This document shows positions 8,910-26,548 of a stretch of DNA of 28,816 bases, piece by piece; within the stretch, counting starts at the first letter, position 1; every line of letters begins with the position of its first letter. Both the position numbers and the translations under genes were made by a program. Location: positions 1 to 28,816 of the IMG/VR virus record IMGVR_UViG_3300032212_000117; one strand, 5' to 3'. The DNA comes from a virus (taxonomy: Duplodnaviria; Caudoviricetes). Under the pieces are notes generated by a model. The model searched no databases. It saw only the letters and a program-made list of their open reading frames with translations, and had not been told where the DNA came from.

Positions 8910-11536
8910 GCGATGGTGTCCTGAACACATTCAATCGCGGTGAGGTCAGTTCGCTCGCGTTCGGGCGTGACAGGGTTGATCGGATCCGAAATTCAGCTGA
9001 GCTGGTTGATAACTGGGTTCCGATGCGGCTTGGCCCGATGATCCGTCGCGGTGGTTTTGAAGTGATTGCTGCTGCCCTGACGGGGTCGCGGTTTTTTGAA
9101 TTCTTCTATTCGCTGAGCGAAGTGGCTGCACTTGAGATGGGAGACAGCCTGCTGCGCATCTGGAAAGATGACGCGCTGATGTCCCGCACCGCAGTGACAT
9201 CGACGATTGCGAATGGCGACTTTGCGACCGATCTGGCCAGCTGGACTGACGCCTCGGGGGCCGGCTCCTCTGTGACGTGGACAGCGAGCGGCGCCAAGTT
9301 TGTCGGGGCTGACACGACTGACGCGGTTTTGCACCAAACGCTGGGAAGCACACAGACGGGCGCTGAGCACGGTTTGCGGATAAAGGTTATCGACGCACCG
9401 CTTCGGGTTCTGATCGGCACCAGCGGAGCCAGCAGCGACGATATTACGGACAGTTTGCTTGAGCCTGGGGAATATTCTTTGGTTTTCACGCCAGATGCGG
9501 CGGCAACCATCACATTTGTGAATGATCAGGTGTATAGCGCCACGCTCGAAAGTGTTGAGTTGGAGGCTGCTGGCACGGTGACGATCCCGACACCGGTCCC
9601 GCTAGCGGATGTCGATAGTGTTTTCATGTCTCAGCAAGCGGGCCGGATTTACTGCAACTGGTCTGGTGAGCAATTCATGATTGAGCGCCGAGGGCCTAAG
9701 TCGTGGGGCGTTGTTGATTATCGCGTTGATGATGGCCCGTTCGATACCGTAAACTTGGATGAGGGCCTCACGCTGACGGCAGGTGCCCTGAAGGGCGACA
9801 CAACGCTGACGGCATCAAAGCGGCACTTCAAGGCGGCAGACGTAGGCACGCTGCGGAAGTTGCTAAGCACAGGCCAGGAGGTGAGCGCAACCGTCACGGC
9901 AGAAGATAATGGCACGGATTCGGTCAGGGTTACGGGTACGAACGGCCCTTCCCGTGCCTTCAGATTTACGATCTCGGGCACTTTTGTCGCGAGTGTTTTG
10001 CTTCAGCGATCGACAGATGGCACCAGCGGGTGGGAGACAGCGCGGGGGCCATTCACATCCACGATCACAGAAAGCTGGGATGACGATCTTGACGGGACGG
10101 TTTATTTCTATCGGCTGCATGTCCCTTCTGGTGGCTTCACGAGCGGCTCCGTTGGTCTGAATATCTCGTATTCAGGCGGCGGCATCGAGGGCATTTGCCG
10201 GATTAAATCGATCACAAGCTCGACCGTGGCACAGGTCCAGGTGCTTCAGGCTATGGGATCCACGGATGCCACACGGGATTGGCGCCGCAGCCAATGGGGC
10301 GGCGAGGCCGGTTACCCGAATGCGAACGCGCTTTACGAAGGGCGACTTTGGCAGGCAGGCAAAGAGGGCCATTGGGGCTCGGTAAGTGATTCCCCGCGTT
10401 CCTACGACCGCGACTTAGAGGGCGCAAGTTCGTCCATTTTCAAGACCATTGGTCAGGGTCCGGTCGATGAGGTGAGCTGGATTGCAGCCGCGTCTCGGTT
10501 GGCGCTCGGACTTGCAAGCGACGTAATCCCGGTTCGATCGTCATCCTTTGGTGAGGCGATGACCCAAGATAATGTGCTTTTGCGGGATGGTCCGAACCAA
10601 GGTGCCGCACTGGTTGACCCGAAGCGTTTGGGCAATTCGCTGTTTTATGTCCACGCGAACGGTTCGAAGATCTATGAGTTGACATATTCCACGGGGGATG
10701 ACGGCTTCCACGCGAATGATCAGACGCTGCTCCACGAGGATATTTGCAAGCCGGGTGCTTCTGAGCTGGCGCTTGCGATACAACCGGAAACACGCCTCTT
10801 TGTCAGGTTGAGCGACGGCAGTGCTCGGGTTCAGCTGTTTGACAAGGCCGAGGATATTCTGGGCTGGTCCAGGATCACGCTCGCAAGCGGTCAGATAACC
10901 GGGATTTTCACGTTGCCGGCGACAGATGAGACCATGATTTATGCCAAGATCTCTTATGGCGGCACGGAATACCTCTGCAAGCTTGCGAAGTTGAGCGAGT
11001 TCAATACACGGCCTGCGGACCTGTTTACCCACTATGCGGGTCCAATTCAGACTTGCACGGGGCTTGATCGCTTCGATGGCGTTTCGGTTGAGGCTTGGTC
11101 TGGGTCTGCGAAGATTGGCACGTTCACGCCTTCGGGCGGTTCGATTGATCTTGGTGCCAGCTACTCTGATGTGACGGTTGGATTGACGATCACGGCCAAA
11201 TATAAGTCCGGCAAGCTCGGCCAGTATGGTGAGCGATCGGTTTTGTCAGAGCGCAAGCGAGTCGTGGATCTGGCGATCTTAATGAAAAGTGTATGGCATG
11301 AGGGCCTGACTTTCGGCGTGAGCGATACGCGCCAGGATGCCCTGCCATTGTATTACAAAGGCGCAGAGCTGGATACGACTGCTCTGATTGATGATTTCGA
11401 TACTGTCGGTGTTCCGTTTGAGGGGGATTTCGATGTCGATAGCCGGATCTATATCACCGCCATGGGACCGGCGACCATTCTGGCTCTAAGTTTTGACTAT
11501 GACGAACGCGAACGTCAGGCCCGCGCAGCCCAGTGA
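8906..11536 (+). CDS. Tail nozzle (T7 gp12 / tail tubular protein B-like)
   Basis: N-terminal TFNRGEVS...NWVPMRLGPMIRRGG, GYPNANALYEGRLW and GWSR motifs of this beta-propeller family; 876 aa with inserted beta-sandwich segments. Confidence 0.88.
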   Translation: MSDGVLNTFNRGEVSSLAFGRDRVDRIRNSAELVDNWVPMRLGPMIRRGGFEVIAAALTGSRFFEFFYSLSEVAALEMGDSLLRIWKDDALMSRTAVTSTIANGDFATDLASWTDASGAGSSVTWTASGAKFVGADTTDAVLHQTLGSTQTGAEHGLRIKVIDAPLRVLIGTSGASSDDITDSLLEPGEYSLVFTPDAAATITFVNDQVYSATLESVELEAAGTVTIPTPVPLADVDSVFMSQQAGRIYCNWSGEQFMIERRGPKSWGVVDYRVDDGPFDTVNLDEGLTLTAGALKGDTTLTASKRHFKAADVGTLRKLLSTGQEVSATVTAEDNGTDSVRVTGTNGPSRAFRFTISGTFVASVLLQRSTDGTSGWETARGPFTSTITESWDDDLDGTVYFYRLHVPSGGFTSGSVGLNISYSGGGIEGICRIKSITSSTVAQVQVLQAMGSTDATRDWRRSQWGGEAGYPNANALYEGRLWQAGKEGHWGSVSDSPRSYDRDLEGASSSIFKTIGQGPVDEVSWIAAASRLALGLASDVIPVRSSSFGEAMTQDNVLLRDGPNQGAALVDPKRLGNSLFYVHANGSKIYELTYSTGDDGFHANDQTLLHEDICKPGASELALAIQPETRLFVRLSDGSARVQLFDKAEDILGWSRITLASGQITGIFTLPATDETMIYAKISYGGTEYLCKLAKLSEFNTRPADLFTHYAGPIQTCTGLDRFDGVSVEAWSGSAKIGTFTPSGGSIDLGASYSDVTVGLTITAKYKSGKLGQYGERSVLSERKRVVDLAILMKSVWHEGLTFGVSDTRQDALPLYYKGAELDTTALIDDFDTVGVPFEGDFDVDSRIYITAMGPATILALSFDYDERERQARAAQ

Positions 11537-11852
11537 TGGCTTGAGCCTGCCTGCCTCTGGGCGCGCATGGGTCATGGTCAAGGATGATCAGCTGCTCGGT
11601 TATGGCGGCGTGCTCTATGGGGATTTCCCCCAAGCATTCATGAACCTGACGCCCGAGGCGTTGGAGTGGCCGGTTCTACTGGCAAAGAGTGCGCGAGCGT
11701 TTCGCCGCGTATTGGATCAACACGAAACCGTGTTCGCGATTGCGGACCATAATTACCCTACGGCCCCCCGGTTCCTTGAGTGGATTGGGTTTGAGCCAGC
11801 GGGATACTTTGAGGGAAGGAGGCTTTACCGTTGGCATTCGACGCTTCAGTAA
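11499..11852 (+). CDS. GNAT-fold protein (T7 gp13-like position)
   Basis: N-terminal VRPA and C-terminal RFLEWIGF (GNAT motif B-like); sits between nozzle and ejection genes. ATG at 11499 preferred over TTG at 11493. Confidence 0.7.
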   Translation: MTNANVRPAQPSDGLSLPASGRAWVMVKDDQLLGYGGVLYGDFPQAFMNLTPEALEWPVLLAKSARAFRRVLDQHETVFAIADHNYPTAPRFLEWIGFEPAGYFEGRRLYRWHSTLQ

Positions 11853-12304
11853 AGAAAAAGCCGATGGACTTCGACTATCTCGATGTCGCAAGCAGTTTCC
11901 TGACCGGGGGCGGTTCCCTGATCTCTGGTCTCGGTGGTTACCAGGCTGGCCAATCAGAGGCAGCGCAGCGGGAGGTCCGGGCCGATCAGGCGCTCGCGAC
12001 AGGTACACGCCGCGCAACAGAGGTGCGTCGCCAGGGCGATAAGGTGGCTTCTGATGCCGTTGCGGCCAATGCCTTTAATGGCGGTGCCATGGACGCGGGG
12101 ATGATCGAGCGCATGGCCCGGATCGAAAGCGATACTGATTACAATGTTCTGGCGGAGATGTATGCGGCTGAGACACTGGCCGAAAGCGAGCGATATGCGG
12201 CGCGTGTTGCCAAGAAGACTGGTCAGAACCGTCTGATCGCGGGCGGAATCAAGTCCATCCCGTCTATTCTTGACGGCGCCAAGAAAATGGGCTGGCTCGA
12301 ATGA
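11831..12304 (+). CDS. Small ejection/internal virion protein (gp14/gp7-like)
   Basis: GGAGG RBS 8 nt before a TTG start; Gly-rich hydrophobic N-terminal segment, Ala/Gln helical middle, hydrophobic C-terminus; synteny. Confidence 0.75.
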   Translation: MAFDASVKKKPMDFDYLDVASSFLTGGGSLISGLGGYQAGQSEAAQREVRADQALATGTRRATEVRRQGDKVASDAVAANAFNGGAMDAGMIERMARIESDTDYNVLAEMYAAETLAESERYAARVAKKTGQNRLIAGGIKSIPSILDGAKKMGWLE

Positions 12305-13944
12305 GGATCCCTGACGTCAAAGGCGTTGCCCGATCGGTCCCTGCCGTTCAGTCGCAATTGGTTCGATCCAATCCCTATGAGGGTCTTGGCGAGGCGCTGG
12401 AAGGGCTTGGACGGGCTGCGGAGCGTGAGGTTGATGAGCGTGCGTCTTACCAGACAGCGCAGGCCCGAAGCGCCTTTATCAAGTCCCGTATTGAGCAGGA
12501 CAGCGCATTTGAGGAAGATCTCGATTATGCTGATCTTCCTGAGCGTTACGAAGAGGGATTGCGTAAAAGCCTTTCGACGGTTTCTGAGCAGATCAAAAAC
12601 CCACGTGCGCGGGCCATGTTCGAAGAAGAGCAGCAGGTTCGTATCGCCGAGGGCAAGGCTCGTCAGGCGCTGCGAGCCAGCGGGATTGAGCGGGACACTG
12701 AGCGCGCACGTGTCAGCGAGAGCTTGAATGGATTGAACGAAGCGGGCCTTGGCTCAGAGGATCCCCTTGAAATGTTTGCAGAGGTTGGGTCTTTGCTTGA
12801 GAGTGCGGTCGAGGCCGGTTATTACACGGCAGAGGAAGCGGGCCGAACCGAGCGGGTTTGGAAAGACACGTTCGCGGCCAATAAGATCTCTCTCATGGAA
12901 CCGGATAAGCGCCTGGAGGCTCTTGAGCTGCCATGGGCACAGAATATCCCCACTGTGGTGCGTGAGAAGCTGCGTGAAGAAGCTGAGCGGGATGGGCGGT
13001 CTGCCAGAGCGATTGAGAGTTCAGAGCAATTCTGGGCCGATACTGGTGGTGATTACAACGCTGCCTTGAAGCTCGCAGCTAAGATCAAGGACACCGATGA
13101 TCGCCTCGCTGTTGAGGGCCGTTTGACGACTATGCGAACCCGTCAGGATCAGCAAGAGCGTGAGCAGAACCGCGAAAATGTTCGTGCTGGATGGGAAGTG
13201 CTTGAGCAGGGTGGTGGGCTCGAAGACATTGATTCCGGCGTCTGGGCCGCACTGGATCCTCAAGAGCGTATTCAGATGCGGTCATGGATTAGTGCCCAGG
13301 CGCGTGCTGCTGCAGCCGGATCAAGCCGGGTTACAGACCTAAATGCCTATAATGATGTTTACAGCTTCCTCGACACAGACGACGCGACGGGCGCCCTAAG
13401 CTACCTCAACGCGAATTACGACAAGTTTTCAGAGAGTGACTATCGGAGTTTGCGGTCGAAGATCTCCGGCACATTCGAGGATCCGGGCCTGATTGAGAGT
13501 TCGCGGTCACTGACGCAAAGCGTTTCGAGTGCGATCGACCGGGCCGGCCTAAAGGGTGATGAGACCAAGGGTGAGTTGCTTCTCGAATATGATCGGCTTC
13601 AGCAGGATTATCAGCGCGAACATGGCGAAGATCCTTCGGACCAGTGGCGTGATGAAGCGATTGAGGGGCTGGCTGCGAAGTACAAGATCACCAAGTCTGG
13701 CTGGTTCAATGACAAGACGTCCGCAGCCTATGAGGTTGAAAAGATTGGAACCGTGCCGCAGCGCCACACGCAGGCGGTGCTTAACGCTTTCGGCTCTGTG
13801 GACAGCAAGACGACGATTTCTGAAGAAAAGCTTGGCCGATCTTACTCAATGGCCATGGCATATTTCCGATGGCATGGGATGAGCAATCCAAGTGATGAAG
13901 CAATAACCGAGATGATCAAAGCTCAACAGGCGGCTCAAGAATGA
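12301..13944 (+). CDS. Middle ejection/internal virion protein (gp15/gp20-like)
   Basis: 547 aa, predicted all-helical and charged; N-terminal 'MRIP...GLGEALEGLG' pattern; synteny. No muralytic domain recognised. Confidence 0.75.
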   Translation: MRIPDVKGVARSVPAVQSQLVRSNPYEGLGEALEGLGRAAEREVDERASYQTAQARSAFIKSRIEQDSAFEEDLDYADLPERYEEGLRKSLSTVSEQIKNPRARAMFEEEQQVRIAEGKARQALRASGIERDTERARVSESLNGLNEAGLGSEDPLEMFAEVGSLLESAVEAGYYTAEEAGRTERVWKDTFAANKISLMEPDKRLEALELPWAQNIPTVVREKLREEAERDGRSARAIESSEQFWADTGGDYNAALKLAAKIKDTDDRLAVEGRLTTMRTRQDQQEREQNRENVRAGWEVLEQGGGLEDIDSGVWAALDPQERIQMRSWISAQARAAAAGSSRVTDLNAYNDVYSFLDTDDATGALSYLNANYDKFSESDYRSLRSKISGTFEDPGLIESSRSLTQSVSSAIDRAGLKGDETKGELLLEYDRLQQDYQREHGEDPSDQWRDEAIEGLAAKYKITKSGWFNDKTSAAYEVEKIGTVPQRHTQAVLNAFGSVDSKTTISEEKLGRSYSMAMAYFRWHGMSNPSDEAITEMIKAQQAAQE

Positions 13945-14107: not shown

Positions 14108-17100
14108 ATGACACCTGAACAGATCATTGAACAGGAAAAAGCGCGCAGCGGTGCAGGTGGGGTTGAGATGGCTCCGACACCTGACACCATAATTGCGCGC
14201 GAAAAAGAGCGCTTGGCCAATAGTGCCTCTGGGTCGTTCTACACGATGCGCGAGACGCAGCCAGAGCGTGCTAGCAAGGTTATTTCGCTCTCTGATCGGC
14301 TTGGCGCTGAACGTGATTTTGTTGATCGCAATCTTGAGACGATGGAAGAGGCTGCTGCCGAAGATGAGCGTCGGAGCCTGCTGGCTCAATTCCCGAAGGT
14401 GGCGCAGTTCTTCTCTGACCCGTATCGAGCCGCAGAGGCGAAAGATAGCGTCTCCAACTTTGCTGAGATCGAAAAAGCATTTGCGGCCCGTCAGAAAGCA
14501 TCCCGGCCTAAAGGTTGGCTAGAGGCTCCATTCTCACAGACCGGAGATCTGGCGCGGTCAGCTGCGGGTGAGTTCGTCAACATGTTCGGCATGGGTGTTC
14601 GCGGTGCGGGTGACCTCACAGGAGCGTATGTGAACACCATGCGCGGCGGTGCCAATATGGTGCCTGGTCTTCGCGAGGGATTGGCCGAACTGGACCGTGT
14701 TGAGGCAGAAATCGCTCCAGAGGCGAAAAACTTCGCGCCACAGAATTATCTGCGCACAGCGGGTGGGGGCGTCTCCGAGCTGGGCGAGATCATCAAGCCC
14801 AAGGATATGGGCTTCGAGGACAAAGTTGCTGGTGCGCTTGGTCAAATTGTTGGTGCTGTTATCACCACGGTTGCTGGTGGTCCGGGCGCGTCTGCTGGTT
14901 TATTCATGGGTATGGGCGCTGATCAACAGGGTCAGGCTATGCGCAATGCTGGCCTCAACCCAGACGAGATGCTGCCTGAGCTGGTGGCCGGTGCTGGAAT
15001 TACTGGATTGAGCGAGCAATTGCGTCTCGGGTCGATCATGCGGATAATGCCGAAAGAAGCGCGCCAGAAGGTGGTTTCAAAGATGCTGGCCCGTGTTGCG
15101 GGTCAGGCCGGTGAAGAAGCGGTTCAGGAGTCTGTTGAGGGTATCCTGCAGAACGTTATGACCACGACATATGACGCGGATGCGAGTGTTTTCGATGGGA
15201 TTGCAGAGCAGGCCACGACAGCTGGTGCGGCCGCTGCGATTTTCCAGACCCTTGTTGAGGTCGCGTTGCCCGGCAAACAGCGTGGCGTGCGTGCTGAGAC
15301 CAATGCCCAGGAATTGATGGATATTCGCGAGGCGATCGAACAGACGCCCGTCTTCCAGCGTTCACGCGAAAGCATAGAGGCATTTCTTCAGCAGGCTGGT
15401 GAGGGCGAGACGATCCTGCTGCACAGCGAAGATCTGGTTGAGCTTTATCAGTCAGCCCCGCAAGAGTTTCTGCAGCGCATGGATGAGGTTGGTCTCACCG
15501 AAGACGATATTTCTCGCGCTATGGATGGTCATGACATAGAGGTCGAGGCCGCAAAGATCCTGTCCGTTTCCGAGGGCTTCGAGGATTGGGTCAAGATCGC
15601 CAAGGCCGATGGAGAGACACCAACGCTTCGCGAGCTGGAGCGATCTGTTGAAGATTCCGACGCTATGGGCGCCGTGGACTTCACAGAGGCGTTTGAGCGC
15701 ATCGCTAAGCAGGATGAGGCGCTGGAGGGCTTTGAGCGCGTACAGAGCGCTGTTACAGAGCAATTGGTCACTGCGGGGCGCGGACAAGCCGAGGCAGAGG
15801 CCGCAGGCGTCGTATGGGGCGCCATGTTCCGTCAGCTAGCCGAGGCCGGTGTAGACGAGGGCGCTGTGTTCGATCGGCTTGGTTTGCGGATCAATGAGCC
15901 TGCTGCACCACGCCTGCCTAAGCCGCAAGAGCCACAAAGCCTGCATTCTTTCATTCGAGAGCTGGGCGGGATCCGCGAAAGCTTCGGCGAGGATCAGAGC
16001 GGACACTTGCGCGGTGAGGTCGATGCGCGGCTTGGCGAACGTGTTCCAGGTCTGATCAATAATGCTTCTGGCGTCACACTGGATGAGATTTTCCGTGCCG
16101 CAACCGAGGAAGGCGGGTTTGAAATCCGCGATGAGCAAGACCTGCTGGATCTTCTGGATCAGGATTTGTCGGGCAACCGTGTCTATCCGGTTGGTGAGGC
16201 AGAGGTCTATTCAGCCGAACTGGATGCTTATGAAGCGCAGTTTGAGAAGCCAGATGGCGAGGTCATGGATCAGGCCGCTGAGGCCGGCTACGAAGGCTCA
16301 GACCGGGGCGAGGCCTCCGAATGGCTTGCTGCCTCTCAGAAGGGCCTAGACATGTCCCAAGAGGCTCGTATGGCCCGTGCGCGGGAGATGGGGTTTGATA
16401 CGGAGCAGGTGCTGTATCATGGAACTGGCGCAGACTTTCAGGAGTTTTTACGCGTCCCTCCGGCGCGTTCAACTAGCGCAGACTCCGCACGCGCCGGCGT
16501 ATGGATGACGGATTCCGCTCAGGAAGCTGCAGAGTATGGAGAGCTTGCTGCGCAAAATCTGAAAACAAACGTGCTTCAGCAGCGAATCAACCAGGCTGAG
16601 CGGCGCGGAGACTGGGACGAAGTAAACAAATTAACCCAAGAATGGGAGGCCTCCGATGCCGCGGGCTTTGATGGAGAGATGGTTCTCCCATTGGTTTCGC
16701 GTGGAAGTCTTCGGGTGGTCGATCTGGGTGGCAAAAAGTTCTCTGAAGCTGGGAATGAAATTTGGCAGGCAATCAACGCTGCTCAAAAAGAAGGGGTCGC
16801 TGGCGTCAGATTCACAAATATAGTGGACCCAGTTAGTAGTGCGGTCCCAACTGAGCCGACAACTCATACGCTCATCTTCGACCCCTCCAACATCCGCTCA
16901 GTAAACGCAGCTTTCGATCCAAACGCTTCTGAGAGCGCGAACCTGCTTGCCCAGAACCCGCCGCGCTCTCTGTTCGCCGCGATGAAAATGGACCCGCAAG
17001 ACCGGGCCGATTGGTATGATCGGATTGTCGATGAGCGGAAGGTTGGAACGAAGACCATCCTTACACTCAAAGCTGATACACGGAATTTGATCGACGATGA

Positions 17101-20100
17101 TGTGGTGATCGCGATCGAGAACGGGATTGACGTTGAGTTCACCGCTGACGGAATGCACGCAAACCGTGATAGCGCACCAACGCCTGAAGATATTGCGAAG
17201 GGTGCGCGGGTCATGGCGATGTCCACGGCAGCGCTTCAAGAATGGATGCTGCGCAATGACAGTCCCTTTGTCGGCTTCACGGGCGCGACTGAGGCGCATA
17301 ACCGACTTTACGAGAGTATGCTCGGGCGCTTTGATTTTGATGGCTATTTAGGGTATAAGACTCACGACTATCGCGCGATGCTGAATGTCGAGGCGGATGG
17401 GACAAAGATAGCTGACGCTGATCCGTATGATTCAGCGCCTGGCTTCATGATCGTAAAGGACGGGTATCTTGAACAAGCAAAATATTTCCTCAAGTCCCGC
17501 CAAGATGGACTTGCCGCAGACGCCACCGCATTCGGAGAATACGGCGCCGGAATCATTACCAAACGACTCGGCAGCACAGTTCCCCTTGAACGACGTTCTC
17601 GACGAGTGGGAGGCCCGGATAGCGGCGGGAACAGCGACGGACGAGGATCTGGAGTTTCTGGAGATGGGCAAGCTGTTTCTGGAAGCGATGTCGGCCTCAC
17701 CCCAATAAGGCCGCAGCAGCGCGAGCTGTTTCAAAGTGCGCAGCAAAAGGCCAGGCCGTCTGAGGTCGGTGTAGAAATCCCTAACAGCAATGGCCTTGTG
17801 GCGATCCGCACAGATGATCTGGGCTTCACCAATAGTGCTGAGAAGGCCATGTTTGATCCGCCGCCACGCTTCCGTGACGCGCAGAACATGACCAAGGATC
17901 AGTGGCGTAAGTACTTCAAGGAAGCTGGCGCCACCAAGGAAGCGTTTGAGTTCATTATTGAGCCTGCGTTGAAGGATATGTCTGACAAGGGCGACCTGCG
18001 CAAAGCTGATGTGATCAAGGCGGTTCGGGCCAATCGGCCAGACGTTCGCGCAAATGACACGGTGGCAAAAAAGCTGAAGCCGTGGCAGCAGGAGGCCTTA
18101 GACGTTGCTGACGATCCGATCGAACTTGCTCGCCTTGGTAAGCGGGCAGAGAGGTTTGTTCGGGATTATGAGGCAGGGCTCAAGGGAGAGCACAGCTATA
18201 GCGAGTATATCTCTCCAGGCCCCGCCACGGGGTATCGGCAAGAGCTGATTGTGGACCCTAGCGTGAATTACAGTTCCCACAACTGGTCGTCCCGCGGCGT
18301 GCTGGCTCACATCCGCATGACGATTCGCCAGATCGTGACCGGCGAAAAGGTGATGCATGCCGATGAGCTTCAGTCTGACCTGCATCAGGAGGGGGCGCAG
18401 TATGGGTATCGGGGTGACCCAAGCTCGCGCGCAGAGCGTCAGCAGGCGTACATGGATGCGCAGGCGGCGCACAATAGGGCAATTGACAGATGGACTGAGT
18501 GGGCAGAGCGGAAGGGCCTTCCTCAAGAGAACATTGGAAATCCTGACAGGGCGGGCACGTCAGAAATGCTTGACGACACAGGGCGCGAGTTGGTGCGCGA
18601 GTACTTCCGAACGGCTGATGTTCTTTCTCAAGTGGGTGAGGCCACACGCAAGGGCAATCGCCAAGATACAATGCGCCCGCCACGCGCACCCATGAAGGAC
18701 TGGGAGAAGCCCGCCATCCGTCGCATTCTTCAGCGGGCAATGGAGGAGGATGTCGATCTGGTGACGTTCACCAGCTTTGATACGCTGCACAACGCGCTTC
18801 AGACGGCTGACGGTACGCGCAATTTCTATGATGAGCGCCTGCCTAAGCACATCCGCAAGGTGGCCAAGCAATTGGGCGCCAAGGTTGAGCGGGCTGTGCT
18901 GCGTCAAGAGGAGTCCGCCTATTCCGTTCAGCGCATGAAGGATAAGATCACCGCGCTTGAGGAAAGACTAAAGCTGGCCAAGGAGGATGGTAATTTAAAT
19001 TATGGTGATCCCTCCACGATTAGGAGGACCATTCGTGGGCTAAAGCATCAGATCAGGCGCTCCGAGCAGGGCGGTGACGCTGTCCTTGCCATCCGCCTCA
19101 CCCCAGAGGCCAAGCAGAAGCTGCAGACCGAAGGCAATGTGCTGTTTCAATCAAACGACATCCATGACGGTTTTTATTCCGCGCTAGAGCGCAAGGTTTC
19201 TGAGATCAAAATGGATCGCGCTCCGGTCGATCAATGGATTTCGACGATTGAGAACCTGAAGGGCATCAAAAAAGAAGAGCTCGAATGGACGGGCATTCTG
19301 GATATGCTGCGCGCTCGCAAAGAAGAACACGATGCTGCCGGACGCAATCAGGCGCTTGTATTCGAGAAGGCGGATATTGTCAGCGCGATCCAGCAAAAAG
19401 GCGTCAAGATTGAAACGATCGAGGCGACCGAAGATGGCAGCGATGAGGGTGTAACTTTTGGGGCATCTGAGGTTTGGGAAGATCCCGAAGCTTGGGAATG
19501 GCGCATTGATGACGAAGTGGATTGGATTGCTGAGAGCGAGGGTGAAAGCATCCGTGAAGAGGCCACACGCGAAGTCGCTGCTGATGATCAGCAATATATT
19601 GAAGACGCCATAGGCGAAGACGCCAGCGAAGAGGCGGTGTTGGAGTATGCTCGACAGGAGTTTGCAGACGAAATTGAGCAGAAATATCAGGACATTCTTC
19701 GCGAGCGCGCTGAAGAATCAGCCAAAGCCAGTTACTACGATGACCCGACTTACATCATCCCGATAAAAGATGGCGAAGGCGACCAGATTGGAATGCTGCT
19801 CGGCAACGACAACTCGGGCTGGGATGTTCGCGCGTCCATGCATTATCGCGATGTCGTGCGCAATGACATCTGGTCTCAAGCAGAGGCCGAGGTTCAAGCG
19901 CGTGAATGGGCCGCAGAAGAAGGTTATGCGGGCGGTGAGGTTGGTCGCGGCCAACGTGCGCAGTGGATGGATTATGTCACTGACGGGCCGTACGAGAATT
20001 ATCGCGAGTTCAAGATCACGCTTCCAGAAGTGCCGGGCGAGTTTGTCGAGGAGTCTCACTTCACTGACCCGAATATCGTGGCTTGGGGGCGAACGACTGA

Positions 20101-23100
20101 TCGAGACTTGATCGTAAACCAGCACGACAACTTAGACGCGCGCGTCAAGGAGATTGCGGAAACCCTGACGGAGGATGCAAGCTTTGACATCCGGCGTACG
20201 AAAGCTGGGATTGAGCAATCTACGGCTTTGATTGAGCGCGGGCGAAAAGAGTTAGAGGCTCTGAAAAATAACGAGCGAGCTCATCCCAGTGAGAAATATA
20301 GCGTACAGGATGAGGTCGATCGCTATATCCGCAATCGGGCCGAGCATGAGCAAGACCTGATCAGACAGCGCGCAAATTGGGATAGTCGCGGGCGTGATCA
20401 ACATGCCCTCCAAATGGCTCTGCGTGAGCAAGAGGTTTCTGCTTTTTATATCGATGAGGCCCAATCCGACTGGCATCAGCAGGGACGGCAGGGGATTTAC
20501 GATACGCCGGAGGAGCGTGCTCGCCGCGATGAAATGGAAGATGACTTGCAGAGCAAGCTTGGCTCTCTTTCCACTGAAATAAATGAGTTTGGCAGGCGCT
20601 ACAGCGAATTACGTGAAAAGCTGTTCGACGGGGGTTCGGTCTCTCCCAAGGGCCATGATGTGTCAGAAGATTATAAACAAATAGCAAGTGAGAACCAAAA
20701 CCGGTATCGCATTGGCCTGAAAAAGCTGGGCGTTGAACTCAATCCAAACTATCCGAATGCGATGGAGGAGTTCGCCAAGATGGTGGACTCTGTCGCGCAC
20801 GGAGTTAATGATTTCAACACGGTTTTTCCAGACGCAGAGAGTGACGGTCTGATCCGTGAGATGGTGACCATCGCCACAGAGCAATACAAGCGACGGTCAG
20901 AAAGGCGGGCGCTGGAGCTTCAGCTCGACAAAGTTCGGGGAGCCCGTGCTGTCCCCAACGCTCCCTTTAAGGGCGACGCCTGGATCAATCTCCTCATGAA
21001 GAAGATGATCCTCCAAGCCGTTGGCGAGGGCAAAGACGCAATTGCGTGGGCAGATGCGCAGGTTGTCAAAGATCGATGGTCTGGCCGCTATGCCGAGCTG
21101 TACGAGAACATGTACGACAAGAAGATGGTCAAGGCCGCTCAAAAGCTGGTTGGTGCCAAGGCGAAGCACATGGACCTTGATGGCGGCGAAAAGAAAAGCC
21201 AGCAGAAACGCACAGATATGTACGTTCAGGCTTATGACCGATTGACGGACGAGGGAGATGTGCTCCGAATCGCGCTGGAGGAAAACAATACGGACGCCGT
21301 GCAAGCCATAGCGCGTGATGTAAGCTCTATTGTCACTAATGAGTCTGTCAGCGGTCAAGACTTGCGAATTGGCCGAGAGCTGAATGAAGAATTGTTCGCG
21401 TGGGTCCGGTCGGGCGGTTGGTCCGAAAGCCAAGGCTACTGGATCATTGAGCTGACCCCGGAAATGCGTGGACGGATCAAGCGCGAGGGCTTTCCGCTTT
21501 TCCAGGGACAAGACAAACAGCCTCGCGCCTCAGTCTTAATACCTGGCGGCGGCGTCCTCACTGACCAGAACGTCATCGTCAATCTGCTCAAGAAAAAAGA
21601 CCGCACGAGCTTCATGCACGAAAGCGCTCATATTTTTCTTGAGCTATATGCGGCGCTTGAAAGCGAAAATGAGGCGATTGCTGAGCGCATGGCCGCTATT
21701 CGCAAATGGCTGAAGATTGAGCCGGGCGAAAAGATTACCCGCGATCAGCACGAGAAATTTGCAGAGAGCTTTGAGGCTTACCTGATGGAGGGCGTGGCTC
21801 CGAGCGCTGAATTGCGCAGTGTGTTCCATTCCTTCCGGCAGTGGTTTGTGGATGTATATCGCCGGCTTCGCGGTCAGCTTCGCAATCTGGAGCCTGAAGC
21901 ACGCGACATCTTCGATCGTATGCTTGCCTCAGATGCCGAGATTGAAATGGCGCAGGGCCAGTATGTCGGCACGCTCTCGAATGTCATGGCGGGTTTGATG
22001 AAACCCGAACAGGTCGAGAAGTATCAGAAGCACGCCCGTAAGGCGGGCAATGTGGCCCGTGACAGGCTTTTCAAGAAGCACATGGAAGAGGTTAAGCGCC
22101 GGGAGCGTAAGGCCTACCAGGAGGAACAGGGCCGCGTTGAAGACATGGTTCGCGCCCAAATGGCTGAGTGGCCAGAGTATAAGGCGCTTACCGCGTTTGG
22201 TGAGGGTGGCCGGTCTCTCGATGTCGCGGAATCGCCTGAGAGCACAAAGCTGAACACGTCAGAGAATGGCGAGCACCCAGAGATTGTGGCGCCTGAAATG
22301 GGCTTCCTGTCAGCTGACGAGATGTTCAAGGCGGTTGCAAAGGTTCCAAGCCCAGAGGTTTTGATCCGTGAATCGGTCAAGAAGATCATGGGTGACCGCT
22401 ATGGCGACATGCTTCGTGATGGGACGATTGAGGCGGAAGCGATGGAAGCCGTGTTCAATGAGCCCACAATTCGCATGATGGAGGCTGAGCGCAATGCGCT
22501 GGCTGAAAAGGGGTCAGCTCAACCCATTCCTCTGATTGCCATTCGGCACGAAGCAGATCGGCTCATCAGCTCGATGCCGATCGATCAAGTCATCAAGCCT
22601 GGTAGATACGCGATTAAAGCGCGTGACCTGCACAAGAAATCGCTTCGCGCGGCTGCCAGGGGCAAGTGGGATGATGCGCTACGCTATACGCATCAGGCGA
22701 TGCTTCAGCACGAATTGGCGCGCAGAGCCTTCAAGGCGCGGGATGAGATTGAAAAGGCCAACCGCTATCTCGCCAAATTCGCGCCAAACCGAAAGCTGGA
22801 TCCGAAGAAGATCAATCCTGATCATATCGCAAAAATTCGCATTCTAATGGCGATGCCGGGCGCAGCTGACCAAGCAGAGGCGCGTAAGGAGCTTCAGGAC
22901 TTCGCTGAGAAGCAGGCTGAGCAAGGGCTGCCAATTGTCCTGCCGTTCGATGTGGCGCAAGACCGTGATCTTCCGCTGCGACGCCGCATGACAATGGAGC
23001 AGTTTCGTGAGTTTCGAGACAGCATCAAAAACCTGAATACGGTTGGTAGGCAGCAAAGCGCCATCGCTCTGGCAGAGTTCAATGATGAGGCACAGGCGCT

Positions 23101-25099
23101 CGCAGACGAGATCGATGCCAACTTCAAGGGCAAGCGCATCAGAGAGACGCGCAATCCTACCCGCACGGAGCGCGCATCCCGCATTGGACGCCAGATTGAT
23201 GCAACCATCATTCGGTGGCCTTTCCTGGTTGAATCACTTCAGGGCGGCAAGGTCGGGAAGATCGTTGAGGCGTTCGACACACGCCTGAGACAGGCCCTGA
23301 CGAACCGGAATGCCCGTCGCCAGAAGATGGCCGATGAGTTGGCTGCGATCTTCAAAAAGCATGGCATCAGCCAGAACGAGCTGAATAGTCGGGTTTCCGC
23401 ACCAGCGATTGAGGCAGGAGCCGTCAAATTCGAGCAGATCATGGCTATTGCGCTCAATATGGGCACTGAACAGAACCGGGACCGCCTTGCCGCTGATCCG
23501 TCAATGCTGGGCGATATGACTGCGATCGAGGCAATGCTTGCCGAGCACCTTGAGCAGCGTCACTGGGATGCAGCGCAGGAAGTCTGGGATCTGATCAATA
23601 CGCTTTGGCCAGACGCGAGTGCGGTTGAGCGCACCGCAACAGGCGTCACGCCCAAAAAGGTCGAGGCATCATCTGTTCAAACAAAGTTCGGCGCTTACCG
23701 AGGCGGCTACTATCCGCTGAAATACGACCGGGCGTTTTTGACGAATAATGACCTTCAGAAGAAGGATGAGATTGAAGAGTGGAAGAACGGCGTCAACGGC
23801 ATGGCAACCCGTGCATCGACGCGTCAGGGGTTCCTGAAAGAGCGTCAGCAGAATGTTGAGCGCCCTCTTGATCTGAGTTTGGGTGTCATCCTCTCGCACA
23901 TCGATGATGTGACCAATGACATCTACATGCGGGAGCCCGCATCTTACGTCTCACGGATGCTGAACAAGAACCGCATTCGCAAGGCGATCAAGGAGACGCA
24001 GGGCGAAGAGTATTTGAAGACGCTCGAAACCATCCTGAAGCGCACGGTGACGGGTACGGAGCAGCCCGATACAGCGTTTGAGAAGTTTCTGCAGACACTG
24101 CGCATAAACGCCTCAGTCGCCATCCTAGGCGGCAATGTGGTGACGGCTGGTCTGGCTCCGATCTCGTATTTCCAGACGGTCATTCCGCAATATGGGTTCA
24201 AGACCGTTTTTGCTGGCATCGCTGAATATTACGCCAACCCGATCAAGAATGCGAAACTGATTGTCGAGAAGTCTGCTTTCATGCGTGAGCGGCAGGATAC
24301 ACTGACCCGTGAGGCTCATGAGTTAATCCGAAGATCTGCCGGCCAAAGCCGTTTCGCTAAAGTGCAGGGAGCCGGATATTGGATGATGGCCATTGCCGAG
24401 AAGCATTCAGTCTCAGGCCCGCTCTGGATTGGGGTATACAATCAAGCGAAGTCTGAAGGCTCAAGCGAGGCGGATGCAATCACTGCGGCTGATCGTGCCG
24501 TATCGACCACGCAGGGATCTGGCCTTGAGATCGACCAGTCTGTCATGCAGGGCGGCAACGAGGGTCTAAGACTGCTCTCGTTCATGTGGGGCTATGTCTC
24601 GGGCTATTATGGCACGGTGCGAAATGACGTTGTGAGCGAGCAAGGGCTCAAGAAACTGATGCCGCTCGTCAAGCACATGGTCTTCCTGAACCTGGTTGCC
24701 TCTATGCTTGAGGCCCTGATCCGAGGCGGTTTCGGAGATGAAGAAGATCCCTATGTCGTTGCGGTCTGGCAGATGATGATGCGCAACACGTTTGGTTTGA
24801 TCCCCGGCGTGTCGAGCGCGGTCAGCAAGTATGACAGCGGTCCTGCTGCCTTTCAGGTTGGAACGAGCATCACACGCGCCACGGAAAATTGGGCTAAGGC
24901 CGGAACGCAGATCTACGAAGAAGGCGAGGCCGAGGGCGAGACCGTCCGGCGTGCGACGCTTGAGACGCTTAAAGCTGGCGGGTTCCTTTTCGGTGTTCCC
25001 GGCACGGTCCAGGCCATGAAAGCCGAAAAGACGTTTGCGGAAGATGACGATCCGACACTGTATGAGGCGATCGTTTCGGGTCCAGATGACGACAACTAA
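14108..25099 (+). CDS. Giant polyvalent ejection protein (gp16 position, 3663 aa): LPD22-like N-terminus, cargo array (ART-like, GNAT-like, duplicated DExQSD modules), HExxH metallopeptidase, helical/hydrophobic C-terminus
   Basis: Uninterrupted ORF at the position of the last ejection gene; YHGT (16415), HESAH (21617) plus HEKFA (21749), internal duplication, and hydrophobic helices near both ends. Confidence 0.88.
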   Translation: MTPEQIIEQEKARSGAGGVEMAPTPDTIIAREKERLANSASGSFYTMRETQPERASKVISLSDRLGAERDFVDRNLETMEEAAAEDERRSLLAQFPKVAQFFSDPYRAAEAKDSVSNFAEIEKAFAARQKASRPKGWLEAPFSQTGDLARSAAGEFVNMFGMGVRGAGDLTGAYVNTMRGGANMVPGLREGLAELDRVEAEIAPEAKNFAPQNYLRTAGGGVSELGEIIKPKDMGFEDKVAGALGQIVGAVITTVAGGPGASAGLFMGMGADQQGQAMRNAGLNPDEMLPELVAGAGITGLSEQLRLGSIMRIMPKEARQKVVSKMLARVAGQAGEEAVQESVEGILQNVMTTTYDADASVFDGIAEQATTAGAAAAIFQTLVEVALPGKQRGVRAETNAQELMDIREAIEQTPVFQRSRESIEAFLQQAGEGETILLHSEDLVELYQSAPQEFLQRMDEVGLTEDDISRAMDGHDIEVEAAKILSVSEGFEDWVKIAKADGETPTLRELERSVEDSDAMGAVDFTEAFERIAKQDEALEGFERVQSAVTEQLVTAGRGQAEAEAAGVVWGAMFRQLAEAGVDEGAVFDRLGLRINEPAAPRLPKPQEPQSLHSFIRELGGIRESFGEDQSGHLRGEVDARLGERVPGLINNASGVTLDEIFRAATEEGGFEIRDEQDLLDLLDQDLSGNRVYPVGEAEVYSAELDAYEAQFEKPDGEVMDQAAEAGYEGSDRGEASEWLAASQKGLDMSQEARMARAREMGFDTEQVLYHGTGADFQEFLRVPPARSTSADSARAGVWMTDSAQEAAEYGELAAQNLKTNVLQQRINQAERRGDWDEVNKLTQEWEASDAAGFDGEMVLPLVSRGSLRVVDLGGKKFSEAGNEIWQAINAAQKEGVAGVRFTNIVDPVSSAVPTEPTTHTLIFDPSNIRSVNAAFDPNASESANLLAQNPPRSLFAAMKMDPQDRADWYDRIVDERKVGTKTILTLKADTRNLIDDDVVIAIENGIDVEFTADGMHANRDSAPTPEDIAKGARVMAMSTAALQEWMLRNDSPFVGFTGATEAHNRLYESMLGRFDFDGYLGYKTHDYRAMLNVEADGTKIADADPYDSAPGFMIVKDGYLEQAKYFLKSRQDGLAADATAFGEYGAGIITKRLGSTVPLERRSRRVGGPDSGGNSDGRGSGVSGDGQAVSGSDVGLTPIRPQQRELFQSAQQKARPSEVGVEIPNSNGLVAIRTDDLGFTNSAEKAMFDPPPRFRDAQNMTKDQWRKYFKEAGATKEAFEFIIEPALKDMSDKGDLRKADVIKAVRANRPDVRANDTVAKKLKPWQQEALDVADDPIELARLGKRAERFVRDYEAGLKGEHSYSEYISPGPATGYRQELIVDPSVNYSSHNWSSRGVLAHIRMTIRQIVTGEKVMHADELQSDLHQEGAQYGYRGDPSSRAERQQAYMDAQAAHNRAIDRWTEWAERKGLPQENIGNPDRAGTSEMLDDTGRELVREYFRTADVLSQVGEATRKGNRQDTMRPPRAPMKDWEKPAIRRILQRAMEEDVDLVTFTSFDTLHNALQTADGTRNFYDERLPKHIRKVAKQLGAKVERAVLRQEESAYSVQRMKDKITALEERLKLAKEDGNLNYGDPSTIRRTIRGLKHQIRRSEQGGDAVLAIRLTPEAKQKLQTEGNVLFQSNDIHDGFYSALERKVSEIKMDRAPVDQWISTIENLKGIKKEELEWTGILDMLRARKEEHDAAGRNQALVFEKADIVSAIQQKGVKIETIEATEDGSDEGVTFGASEVWEDPEAWEWRIDDEVDWIAESEGESIREEATREVAADDQQYIEDAIGEDASEEAVLEYARQEFADEIEQKYQDILRERAEESAKASYYDDPTYIIPIKDGEGDQIGMLLGNDNSGWDVRASMHYRDVVRNDIWSQAEAEVQAREWAAEEGYAGGEVGRGQRAQWMDYVTDGPYENYREFKITLPEVPGEFVEESHFTDPNIVAWGRTTDRDLIVNQHDNLDARVKEIAETLTEDASFDIRRTKAGIEQSTALIERGRKELEALKNNERAHPSEKYSVQDEVDRYIRNRAEHEQDLIRQRANWDSRGRDQHALQMALREQEVSAFYIDEAQSDWHQQGRQGIYDTPEERARRDEMEDDLQSKLGSLSTEINEFGRRYSELREKLFDGGSVSPKGHDVSEDYKQIASENQNRYRIGLKKLGVELNPNYPNAMEEFAKMVDSVAHGVNDFNTVFPDAESDGLIREMVTIATEQYKRRSERRALELQLDKVRGARAVPNAPFKGDAWINLLMKKMILQAVGEGKDAIAWADAQVVKDRWSGRYAELYENMYDKKMVKAAQKLVGAKAKHMDLDGGEKKSQQKRTDMYVQAYDRLTDEGDVLRIALEENNTDAVQAIARDVSSIVTNESVSGQDLRIGRELNEELFAWVRSGGWSESQGYWIIELTPEMRGRIKREGFPLFQGQDKQPRASVLIPGGGVLTDQNVIVNLLKKKDRTSFMHESAHIFLELYAALESENEAIAERMAAIRKWLKIEPGEKITRDQHEKFAESFEAYLMEGVAPSAELRSVFHSFRQWFVDVYRRLRGQLRNLEPEARDIFDRMLASDAEIEMAQGQYVGTLSNVMAGLMKPEQVEKYQKHARKAGNVARDRLFKKHMEEVKRRERKAYQEEQGRVEDMVRAQMAEWPEYKALTAFGEGGRSLDVAESPESTKLNTSENGEHPEIVAPEMGFLSADEMFKAVAKVPSPEVLIRESVKKIMGDRYGDMLRDGTIEAEAMEAVFNEPTIRMMEAERNALAEKGSAQPIPLIAIRHEADRLISSMPIDQVIKPGRYAIKARDLHKKSLRAAARGKWDDALRYTHQAMLQHELARRAFKARDEIEKANRYLAKFAPNRKLDPKKINPDHIAKIRILMAMPGAADQAEARKELQDFAEKQAEQGLPIVLPFDVAQDRDLPLRRRMTMEQFREFRDSIKNLNTVGRQQSAIALAEFNDEAQALADEIDANFKGKRIRETRNPTRTERASRIGRQIDATIIRWPFLVESLQGGKVGKIVEAFDTRLRQALTNRNARRQKMADELAAIFKKHGISQNELNSRVSAPAIEAGAVKFEQIMAIALNMGTEQNRDRLAADPSMLGDMTAIEAMLAEHLEQRHWDAAQEVWDLINTLWPDASAVERTATGVTPKKVEASSVQTKFGAYRGGYYPLKYDRAFLTNNDLQKKDEIEEWKNGVNGMATRASTRQGFLKERQQNVERPLDLSLGVILSHIDDVTNDIYMREPASYVSRMLNKNRIRKAIKETQGEEYLKTLETILKRTVTGTEQPDTAFEKFLQTLRINASVAILGGNVVTAGLAPISYFQTVIPQYGFKTVFAGIAEYYANPIKNAKLIVEKSAFMRERQDTLTREAHELIRRSAGQSRFAKVQGAGYWMMAIAEKHSVSGPLWIGVYNQAKSEGSSEADAITAADRAVSTTQGSGLEIDQSVMQGGNEGLRLLSFMWGYVSGYYGTVRNDVVSEQGLKKLMPLVKHMVFLNLVASMLEALIRGGFGDEEDPYVVAVWQMMMRNTFGLIPGVSSAVSKYDSGPAAFQVGTSITRATENWAKAGTQIYEEGEAEGETVRRATLETLKAGGFLFGVPGTVQAMKAEKTFAEDDDPTLYEAIVSGPDDDN
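16274..16954 (+). other. ADP-ribosyltransferase-like domain (ART-PolyVal type) within the giant protein
   Basis: LYHGT...F..F, GVWMTDS...A.EYG, GVRFTN and IFDPSNIRSVNAAFDP follow the motif order of this family. Confidence 0.75.
17469..17708 (+). CDS. Putative nested gene (79 aa, acidic, helical C-terminus) in the +1 frame inside the giant gene
   Basis: AAAGGA 8 nt before a TTG start; protein-like C-terminus LNDVLDEWEARIAAGTATDEDLEFLEMGKLFLEAM; the host frame here degenerates into an R/G/S low-complexity stretch. Confidence 0.6.
   Translation: MNKQNISSSPAKMDLPQTPPHSENTAPESLPNDSAAQFPLNDVLDEWEARIAAGTATDEDLEFLEMGKLFLEAMSASPQ
17735..21505 (+). repeat. Two diverged tandem copies of one protein module (17735-19150 and 19151-21505)
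   Basis: Collinear motif pairs: GFTNSAE/GFYSALE, DQW/DQW, KADV/KADI, GP...YR/GP...YR, DELQSDLHQEG/DEAQSDWHQQG, PRAPMK/PNAPFK, LTPE...EG..LFQ in both. Confidence 0.85.
21506..21930 (+). other. Zincin-like metallopeptidase domain within the giant protein
   Basis: DRTSFMHESAHIFLE (HExxH at 21617-21631) and downstream HEKFAESFEAYLMEG supplying a candidate third Zn ligand. Confidence 0.8.
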
Positions 25100-25139: not shown

Positions 25140-25814
25140 TTAGTGGTCATTGCTGGCCACCAGTTTTAGAGGGACAACCTTCTTCGCTCTGCGTGTTTCC
25201 CAGCCTTTCTTGGCAGCCTTGGAGCGTGATTTGCTCTTGATTGGCTTGGCCTTGGTGGGTTGCTTTGCAGGGGTGCCGATACATGCGAAGTAAATCGCAA
25301 GAGCGGCCTGGATGGCTCCCATGATGCCAAACACGAGCATCAAGGGTGCAGATGGTGCCTTAAGGGCTTTCAGGTCACTTTCGGCTTTCTCGACACGTCC
25401 GGTGAGGTTTGTGTTGAGAGTTTCCCAGGTCGAGGCGCGTCGGATCTCTCCGGTAGCGCTTGGCATGGGAAGGGCAGTCAGGTCTGCGCGGGCTTGATCA
25501 AGGCGGGTCTGAGCGGCTGTGACATCCGCTGAAACGGTGAAACCTTTGAAGGTCTCGAAACCTTGAGCGTTCTGGTAGCAGTCACACGCGATGAACACGA
25601 GTGCCGGCAGAACCAGAAACCAATTGCGGCGCAGGTGATACGCAGCGATTGGCCCCATAAGAGAGACGCAGACTGAGCCGATGACGGCAACGGCGACAAT
25701 ATAATCGTGTTGCCCTGAAAGCTCTGAGATCCAGTGAGCGGCAGAGAGTGCCGCGAAGCAAAGAGCAAGAAGACAGGCAATCCCTGTCGTGATAAGTGAA
25801 GACAGCTTCATCAT
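25140..25814 (-). CDS. Multi-pass membrane protein (224 aa), antisense accessory gene; superinfection-exclusion-like position
   Basis: AAAGGAA RBS before ATGATG at 25814; three N-terminal TM segments, a coiled coil, a fourth TM and a very basic tail (RSKAAKKGWETRRAKK); has its own terminator. Confidence 0.8.
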   Translation of the reverse strand: MMKLSSLITTGIACLLALCFAALSAAHWISELSGQHDYIVAVAVIGSVCVSLMGPIAAYHLRRNWFLVLPALVFIACDCYQNAQGFETFKGFTVSADVTAAQTRLDQARADLTALPMPSATGEIRRASTWETLNTNLTGRVEKAESDLKALKAPSAPLMLVFGIMGAIQAALAIYFACIGTPAKQPTKAKPIKSKSRSKAAKKGWETRRAKKVVPLKLVASNDH

Positions 25815-25945
25815 CGGGGTAGTTCCTTTGGTGAAGTCAGCGTCGAGAGGTGGTGAAGACACCTTTCGGCGCGACGTTTTCAAACAGCATTTTTAGGAAA
25901 ATATCGGGGCAACGCGTTGCCGTCCGATGCTTTGAATATAGCAGA

Positions 25946-25975
25946 TTTCGCGAAAATTACGATGTCATTCGCGAA
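25946..25975. promoter_or_regulatory. Pair of palindromic sites (TTTCGCGAAA and TTCGCGAA), putative operator
   Basis: Palindromes at 25946-25955 and 25968-25975, centres 21 bp apart, in an AT-rich divergent intergenic region. Confidence 0.5.
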
Positions 25976-26001
25976 AAAGTGCCGAAAACGGCGATTTTTT
26001 T
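25974..26001 (+). terminator. Weak terminator-like hairpin before the tail-fibre genes
   Basis: AAAAAGT-GCCG-AAAA-CGGC-GATTTTTTT: short GC stem with flanking A and T tracts. Confidence 0.4.
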
Positions 26002-26014
26002 CATTGAGGTGAAT

Positions 26015-26548
26015 ATGTCCGTAAACCTTCGGATTGCTGAGGCGATTCAGAACCAAACGTTGGCGCCATGCAGGGTTGCCGCGACAGATAATCTAACGCT
26101 TGCCGGCCTTCAAACGGTTGCCGGTATTGTGGTGGCTGCGGGCGATCGAGTGCTCGTGCCTGAGCAAACAGATGCCACTGAGAACGGGATTTACGTTGTT
26201 TCAGGCGGCACATGGGTCCGATCATCTGATCTGAATGGGTCGGGGGACTTGAGCACGGGCGCGATTGTCCCGATCTCAGAGGCTCAAGAATTGTGGCAGG
26301 TTTCTTATGCCGGAGCCTTCTCGGCAGGTGTGACTGCATTGACGTGGGTTCGCCTTCTGGCCGCATTGCGCACGCCAGTGACTGCAACAGACCTTGCGGA
26401 CGCGACGCATAGCGTAAACACCACAAACAAGTATGCGGGGCTGACCGTCCCTGACAGCACGAATACTCGCCTGATGATTACCTTCGGTGCGTCGGCGACA
26501 TCACCCTGGTACGTGGCCGATGGATCGGCATCGATCACCCCTTCTTAA
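26015..26548 (+). CDS. Short tail fibre/adapter protein (177 aa)
   Basis: GAGGT RBS before ATG at 26015; N-terminal CRVAATDNLTLAGLQTV...GDRVLV..Q.D..ENGIYV...W.R domain common in phage tail fibres; short C-terminal domain. Confidence 0.8.
   Translation: MSVNLRIAEAIQNQTLAPCRVAATDNLTLAGLQTVAGIVVAAGDRVLVPEQTDATENGIYVVSGGTWVRSSDLNGSGDLSTGAIVPISEAQELWQVSYAGAFSAGVTALTWVRLLAALRTPVTATDLADATHSVNTTNKYAGLTVPDSTNTRLMITFGASATSPWYVADGSASITPS

Follow-up and report, generated by a model that had tools for sequence, protein, structure and literature searches.

The window analysed here is the whole 28,816-nucleotide stretch of the IMG/VR virus record IMGVR_UViG_3300032212_000117 (Caudoviricetes), a phage record that is 58% complete. 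It holds a podophage morphogenesis operon with genes for terminase, portal, capsid and tail tubular proteins, two 'internal virion protein' genes and tail fibres. The internal-virion block closes, downstream of the tail tubular and internal virion genes, with its largest gene, whose giant product is the subject of this analysis (Table 1). This protein carries a string of cargo modules, each ending in a hydrophobic-x-Gln motif, that is predicted to be inserted into a HExxH peptidase domain of the zincin type. The C-terminal part matches 49 phage records, including Bbp10 of BPP-1 (27.5%, E 4e-45), which appears in the available text of Hardies et al. in their list of homologues of internal virion protein (IVP) D (PMC4819975). 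This homology and the position in the operon make the giant protein a likely ejection protein of the IVP-D type. Bbp10 goes unmentioned in the accessible part of the BPP-1 paper (PMC3863775), and size data for any relative of the giant protein are absent from the portions of the BPP-1, phi24B and A1002 papers that were available. The N-terminal region has a hydrophobic stretch at aa 240-260. LPD22, ART-PolyVal, a predicted GNAT fold and the zincin stand together in one chain, the combination of disparate domains by which polyvalent proteins are recognized. A sequence search with the C-core found no solved relative.

Table 1 Features of the giant protein and of the genes directly upstream of it
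Feature	Position (nt)	Strand	Remarks
IVP-A-like, IVP-B-like and 547-aa gene in IVP-C position (three genes)	11493..13944	+	phrog_308 and phrog_418 'internal virion protein'; third gene by position only
Giant polyvalent protein, likely of IVP-D type	14108..25099	+	ORF, 3,663 aa, about 409 kDa
LPD22 domain, start of conserved N-core	14243..14497	+	Pfam PF18834, E 3.8e-12
Sixth motif copy, LYQ, in conserved N-core	15443..15451	+	aa 446-448; not in the initial annotation
Predicted split zincin, N-half: helices and strand 1 (about 15878-15898)	15647..15907	+	Contiguous with C-half in cargo-free relatives; fold of relative L071; complex prediction
Module 1, optional, on the N-core, ends MDQ	15893..16273	+	127 aa; absent in homologues P0004 and P0005
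Motif end VMDQ	16273	+	aa 722
Cassette 2, ART-PolyVal, ends LAQ	16274..16954	+	Pfam PF18760, 38.5 bits against a cut-off of 31.2
Motif end LLAQ	16954	+	aa 949
Cassette 3, weak DUF6934 lead and Gly/Ser/Arg-rich tail, ends LFQ	16955..17734	+	Pfam DUF6934 E 0.2; Atlas 0.87, lead only
Motif end ELFQ	17734	+	aa 1209
Cassette 4, predicted GNAT fold with large inserts, ends LFQ	17735..19150	+	AlphaFold2 pLDDT 80.7
Motif end VLFQ	19150	+	aa 1681
Cassette 5, cassette 4 paralogue with longer inserts, ends LFQ	19151..21505	+	38% over 62 aa, E 2e-5; shared invariant residues, alignment A5
Motif end PLFQ	21505	+	aa 2466
Predicted split zincin, C-half: strands 2 and 3, HESAH (21617-21631), conserved Glu helix (about 21749-21784)	21506..22021	+	
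Conserved C-core, likely ejection-protein body	22022..25099	+	phrog_9880, E 9e-150

The initial annotation had described five such motifs followed by A, N, S, S and G in that order, and a HESAH peptidase sequence; all of these lie where it placed them. In the giant protein alone LFQ occurs above chance (3 seen, 0.43 expected). The annotation's remark that the MDQ and LAQ boundaries are weaker than the LFQ ones is true for this one sequence, in which only LFQ beats chance; because the loose pattern is close to chance in a single sequence, these two boundaries needed homologues. BLAST blocks start or stop at query positions 722, 946-950, 1209-1210, 1672-1681 and 2463-2464, and homologues thus confirm that all five motifs are module ends. 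The proposal of five cassettes ending in hydrophobic-x-Gln stood as far as the five ends are concerned, but only four of the cassettes are flanked by motifs, module 1 being without one on its N-terminal side. A crude pattern classed 87 proteins as being without module 1, and 54 of these have a motif within 40 aa after strand 1 of the zincin, versus 12 of 43 carriers; the latter equals the background of 28.5%, which argues that module 1 is an optional extension of the N-core.

Relatives show that the array is one variable site at which cassettes exchange at the Gln. A breakpoint test that ignored the motif was run on 27 close homologues (P0001-P0028 minus P0014, which has no N-core). Shared sequence ended exactly on a motif Gln in 25 of 109 cases and within -4..+6 of it in 41 of 109, versus a background of 9.7%, and 36 of 125 starts of shared sequence did likewise. 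Among the rows listed, the other breaks were mostly places where the N-core ends or where the ART cassette diverges internally. A test on BLAST ends was noisier than this diagonal test, with 20 of 104 ends and 31 of 79 starts within 6 aa versus 10%. The exchanges are clean in two homologues: in P0002 the end of module 1 is fused directly to the start of cassette 3, and in P0003 the end of cassette 3 is fused directly to the peptidase, both at the Gln. The earlier reading of the motif as a cassette boundary is thereby borne out. The last site, immediately before the peptidase motif, was followed further. With aa 2440-2900 as the query there were 677 long homologues, 120 of them among the matches listed; setting aside 38 near-identical Pseudomonas prophage proteins left 82. 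In 77 of these 82, [LFYM]-x-Q occurs in the 30-aa window upstream of HExxH, versus 24% of C-core windows. It is also present in 13 of 13 named phage records with the region listed, of 14 examined, and BPP-1 and JessA carry a single cargo with a motif on each side.

The cassettes had been described as stacked in front of the peptidase; the array instead interrupts the peptidase domain. It is well predicted, from models and alignments, to lie inside a zincin, in the loop between strand 1 and strand 2, with the two halves reassembling into one domain. In 130 non-redundant proteins, HExxH follows the last N-core strand at a distance of 34 to 2,270 aa (standard deviation 506), and the lengths of the N-core and C-core vary little (standard deviations 59 and 89, n = 122). 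In the cargo-free relatives L071, P0138 and P0140 a helix and a strand are followed by a short loop with one motif, two strands and HExxH. AlphaFold2 modelled the L071 stretch from a 35-row alignment with pLDDT 81.9 and pTM 0.68, placing strand 1 at 91-93, the motif in coil at 102-104 and two further strands (108-111 and 116-119) ahead of the HExxH helix. The nearest folds cover both halves and include sequence-specific endopeptidases (PPEP-2, Z 6.2, root-mean-square deviation (rmsd) 4.3, 137 aligned; anthrax lethal factor (LF), Z 6.1, rmsd 5.3, 147 aligned); Foldseek gave no match for this model at E<=0.001. In the giant protein itself some 1,870 residues separate the halves; aa 514-600 and aa 2456-2638, modelled with zinc, bind each other in a complex prediction that scored 0.73 versus 0.01 for the best control, a mark reached by 116 of 157 solved pairs and 2 of 215 mismatched pairs. 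Strand 1 contacts strand 3 in this complex, the runs agreed on at least 15% of contacts, and the partners had pLDDT of at least 64. The H, E and H of the C-half and two downstream Glu are invariant in 49 of 49 rows, and 191 of 191 C-cores, those of cargo-free relatives included, have HExxH ahead of the conserved Glu helix. Peptidase-dead relatives were sought as a natural control and none was found; phages whose tblastn match starts after HExxH still have HExxH. The spacing from Gln to strand 2 varies from 0 to 14 aa over 107 sites, and the motif is thus not a fixed part of the fold.

Natural gene splits within the loop were also considered. In two loci (L011 6907-13390 and L026 6015-13744) of the 61 with both halves, the zincin halves lie in overlapping frames, which are probably frameshifts and may otherwise stem from assembly errors; these loci were left unused. 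The N-half was not found in 19 of 80 loci, which were not used as natural gene splits either. A 1,775-aa Pseudomonas homologue, P0133, keeps HExxH and is without the zincin N-half and the loop, possibly through deletion.

We consider it probable, on the combined weight of the alignments and models, that the resident reassembled zincin cuts at hydrophobic-x-Gln and so frees the cassettes in the host. The N- and C-halves would form a single zincin from which the array loops out beside the active-site edge strand. The giant protein would be packaged and ejected whole, and the cutting is placed after ejection because the tether would deliver the cargo. The zincin would then cleave its own loop, freeing four cassettes of about 25, 28, 54 and 90 kDa if the cut falls at the Gln, and the N- and C-core would remain associated afterwards. 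Many zincins select a hydrophobic residue after the scissile bond; the cut may therefore lie before or within the tripeptide and not necessarily after the Gln. Ancestrally the loop would have been empty and cut once, for maturation; cargo would exploit this cut by arriving with a second copy of the site.

The composition of the motif bears on how it acts. Among 149 distinct junctions, in which the Gln and the hydrophobic column are fixed by how the sites were chosen, Pro never occupies the middle position, and Gln is followed by Gly, Ser or Ala in 52 and by Pro in 11. The likeness to 3C-type LFQ-G/S sites seen in the initial annotation fails, since the residue after Gln is unrestricted. The giant protein has no Pfam match to a chymotrypsin-like cysteine protease, in a genome that is 58% complete. 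At the nucleotide level synonymous positions are free, with 0.10 bit at the third base of the hydrophobic codon and CAG in 34 and CAA in 26 of the called-site loci (60 of 76). No DNA repeat family was found at the junctions of the window. An integron-like or target-duplication DNA site was rejected on these two grounds, and the synonymous freedom argues that the motif acts at the protein level. The same observations make it very improbable that the motif is a relic of recombination, by target duplication or microhomology, with no job in the protein. Such a relic would also give n cassettes with n+1 motifs, and the crossovers do lie within the motif, but the Gln is retained across proteins about 30% identical. 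In a de-duplicated set of 98 proteins, in which relatives do not count as independent, cargo holds more [LFY][FY]Q than expected (66 vs 26) and the C-core holds fewer (31 vs 53+/-6), while endings in E, K/R, N and S show no such depletion there. There is one motif per junction, and about one per 290 aa of cargo (r 0.79).

The Gln follows the scaffold in which a cassette sits. A profile search with cassette 2 gave 150 matches, of which 143 new ones were used, and 165 ART ends were compared: 17 of 17 beside this peptidase end in Gln versus 5 of 148 elsewhere, the latter five including at least one apparent fragment of the peptidase family. On a FastTree of 137 ART copies, built with the tail excluded, Gln is present in 33 of 33 copies beside this peptidase versus 4 of 104 others. 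The scaffold label switches 24 times on this tree, with agreement in about 9 of 9 independent pairs (p 0.004); the tree is noisy, and many of the 'other' proteins may be fragments. Outside the scaffold the cassette-4 family has the motif end in 0 of 7 proteins, one of which reads LFS where the scaffold family has LFQ. In P0169, which has another zincin scaffold, M[FY]A[IL] is repeated eight times. Together these comparisons give indirect support to the motif as a signal read by the resident peptidase. Other giant proteins have repeated words of their own at ART ends (P0201, MFAL/MYSF; P0271, LFSRR; P0173, LMASR; P0252, L[LM][AS]SQ), and members of the cassette 2 ART subfamily are frequent among small phage proteins with a Gly/Ala-rich hydrophobic tail end (P0149-P0291).

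This dependence on the scaffold also bears on whether some other protease, either a phage head-maturation enzyme or a host enzyme, cuts at the motifs. T4-type head proteases offer a precedent, cutting hydrophobic-x-Glu in internal proteins, and such an enzyme could be encoded in the rest of a genome that is 58% complete; furthermore, BPP-1 bbp18, labelled 'protease', shares phrog_3742 with the window gene at 4919-5872. A T4-type site does not fit the counts, as Glu is not enriched at the last site ([LFY][FY]E 1 vs 1.9 expected; [LFY][FY]Q 52 vs 2.1). The bbp18-like gene is in the scaffolding position and its window copy matches only a family of unknown function, and the BPP-1 capsid proteins are uncleaved according to the accessible part of PMC3863775. 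The motif differs between polypeptides that have different zincin scaffolds and persists in phages of very different hosts, and we regard an outside protease as improbable.

A different role for the motif would be as a docking or pseudo-substrate element that tethers, orders or threads the cassettes while the chain stays uncut, with HExxH acting on a host target or being structural. A Gln linked to the scaffold is explained equally well in this way. The list of similar folds includes the anthrax LF/EF N-terminal domains, which are non-catalytic binding domains, and according to the available text on N4 its virion RNA polymerase (vRNAP) works as an intact beads-on-a-string chain (PMC13434306). 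The conserved N-core also holds a sixth copy of the motif. At aa 448 Gln occurs in 80% of 107 homologues with the same preferences in the preceding residues, a motif lies nearby in 95 of 107, and the surrounding N-core stretch has 63 [LFY][FY]Q versus 3.3 expected. This copy may be a real site that splits off the N-terminal region, a latency element or a structural motif; its apparently helical nature is a point for docking, and a structural role would favour docking further. However, the catalytic HExxH is never lost, even where there is no cargo, the motif is depleted in the C-core, and one motif per junction, in proportion to cargo length, suits release of each module. We therefore think docking unlikely.

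Several observations weigh against cleavage by the resident zincin. The motif is weak, the loose hydrophobic-x-Gln pattern occurring 60 times in the giant protein versus about 50 expected. The comparisons do not distinguish a Gln that co-varies with the peptidase from one that co-varies with the scaffold as a whole. The Z-scores of the peptidase fold are middling, the motif is not seen in the cleft of the L071 model, and the complex prediction may have passed through likeness to intact zincins because its partners are two halves of one domain. The sixth copy, judged from its pattern, looks helical and sits at a helix end, and may be structural. In the model of cassette 4 the residues up to the motif Leu form a strand of the cargo fold. 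In the consulted portions of the literature on N4, recombinant vRNAP with its HExxH domain is not degraded (PMC13434306) and vRNAP is packaged unprocessed (PMC5512222). At one CP2 junction Ala replaces the hydrophobic residue, and Xylella phage Usme (L085) carries an ART-like insert, without the motif, in a second loop of the zincin. The original expectation that variable domains insert only at the motif held in so far as breaks cluster on the Gln, but these two cases show that insertion is not strictly confined to it. In Usme, where an annotated gene split and this insert lie at about 3000-3400 and 4740-5010, the split coincides with a duplicated stretch; it was considered as a natural split in the loop and set aside, since the duplication makes it look like an assembly artefact.

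The cargo is diverse. The homologous ends of cassette 2 carry the motif in 24 of 24 cases and those of cassette 3 in 9 of 11. In the ART of cassette 2, His771 is 97% conserved over 137 rows, and column 920, where we presume the usual ART catalytic Glu would stand, is His in 49% and Glu in 9%. The cassette 4 model resembles GNAT folds (Z 8.6-9.6, rmsd 3.5-4.5, 131-144 aligned), among them 6edw_A (Z 9.6, rmsd 3.5, 139 aligned) and TacT3 (Z 8.7), the top row being an uninformative helical hairpin. For the same model Foldseek returned no match at E<=0.001; a Pfam GNAT match was absent in 20 members of the cassette 4/5 family, the Atlas clusters matching cassette 4 were all hypothetical, and a scan of viral contigs with it gave zero loci. 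Cassette 5 is assigned a putative GNAT fold by paralogy only. PHROGs gave no match for any of the cassettes. The loops of 46 relatives, 34 of them with Pfam matches, contain ART-PolyVal (23), GNAT (6), PBECR (4), RadC (2) and GGDEF (2), with further matches to ParB, Zeta toxin and LPDs, in agreement with the swappable payload that had been proposed. An anti-defence function of the cargo is suggested by analogy with these Pfam families.

Elsewhere in the window, a small lipoprotein-like gene (2448-2759) has the terminase on one side and the portal on the other, and tail tubular protein A (7722-8909, 395 aa) matches phrog_394 in two places, which looks like an internal duplication. On the minus strand, between the giant gene and those for the fibres, 25140-25883 encodes a hydrophobic protein of 247 aa, probably a membrane protein, with no PHROGs match and a weak Pfam match below the cut-off. 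The adjacent genes at 25850-26548 and 26572-28815 both have a duplicated tail-fibre-type domain (phrog_11518).

For the wider proposition the odds seem to us evenly balanced: in BPP-1-type phages a split zincin may serve as a cargo bay that releases its own load, in which any domain that gains a terminal hydrophobic-x-Gln can enter the loop next to the active site, be ejected and be cut free, each scaffold lineage having its own peptidase-motif code. If true, this would explain how small podophages swap effectors that act before gene expression without breaking an essential ejection protein. The motif could then be used to parse cargo domains of unknown function, which would become candidates for counter-defence enzymes, and the system would define a natural module for delivering proteins to bacteria.

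3C and 3C-like processing uses Gln-containing sites between the modules of one chain. The window protein shares such inter-module sites with these systems, but its enzyme is a zincin and the residue after Gln is unrestricted. With the PPEP and anthrax lethal factor zincins the likeness is one of fold, at 14-18% identity, and implies no toxin function. N4 gp50, in the available text of PMC13434306, is a similarly giant ejection protein, in which a passenger enzyme and a HExxH domain are combined with a membrane region at the N-terminus and a helical C-terminal body; it differs in being intact in reported preparations and in having one fixed passenger instead of an array. In phi24B a virion-associated protein of a different family has a peptidase proposed to attack peptidoglycan (10.64898/2026.04.10.717836, in part), and the accessible part of PMC13730344 contains nothing relevant to the motif or the giant protein. 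The giant protein resembles IVP-D of epsilon15 and BPP-1 in operon position and in its homology to Bbp10. Hardies et al. propose that IVPs carry passenger enzymes into the cytoplasm; a release mechanism is absent from the available portion of that account, whereas the window shows a defined insertion loop and a boundary motif (PMC4819975). The closest parallel is with the polyvalent proteins of Iyer et al. (2017), which in the available text combine ART-PolyVal, GNAT, PBECR, LPD22 and other domains with a HExxH peptidase in a virion-operon protein, and which their MPTase is proposed to process into units (PMC5512222). The giant protein has the same disparate domains, a zincin with HExxH and a downstream Glu, and a place among virion genes. 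The main text of that paper, as far as available, names no junction motif ('linker' has 0 hits and 'cleavage site' occurs only in a reference title), and its available passages do not describe cargo inside the peptidase (PMC5512222). A literature search found no title or abstract describing the motif or the split architecture, subscription papers not being covered. Self-processing of polyvalent proteins was thus already proposed in 2017, and the junction site and the split architecture appear to be new here; with them the proposal gains predicted sites at the level of residues, cultured phages of non-pathogens, and natural forms that are empty, hold one cargo or hold many.

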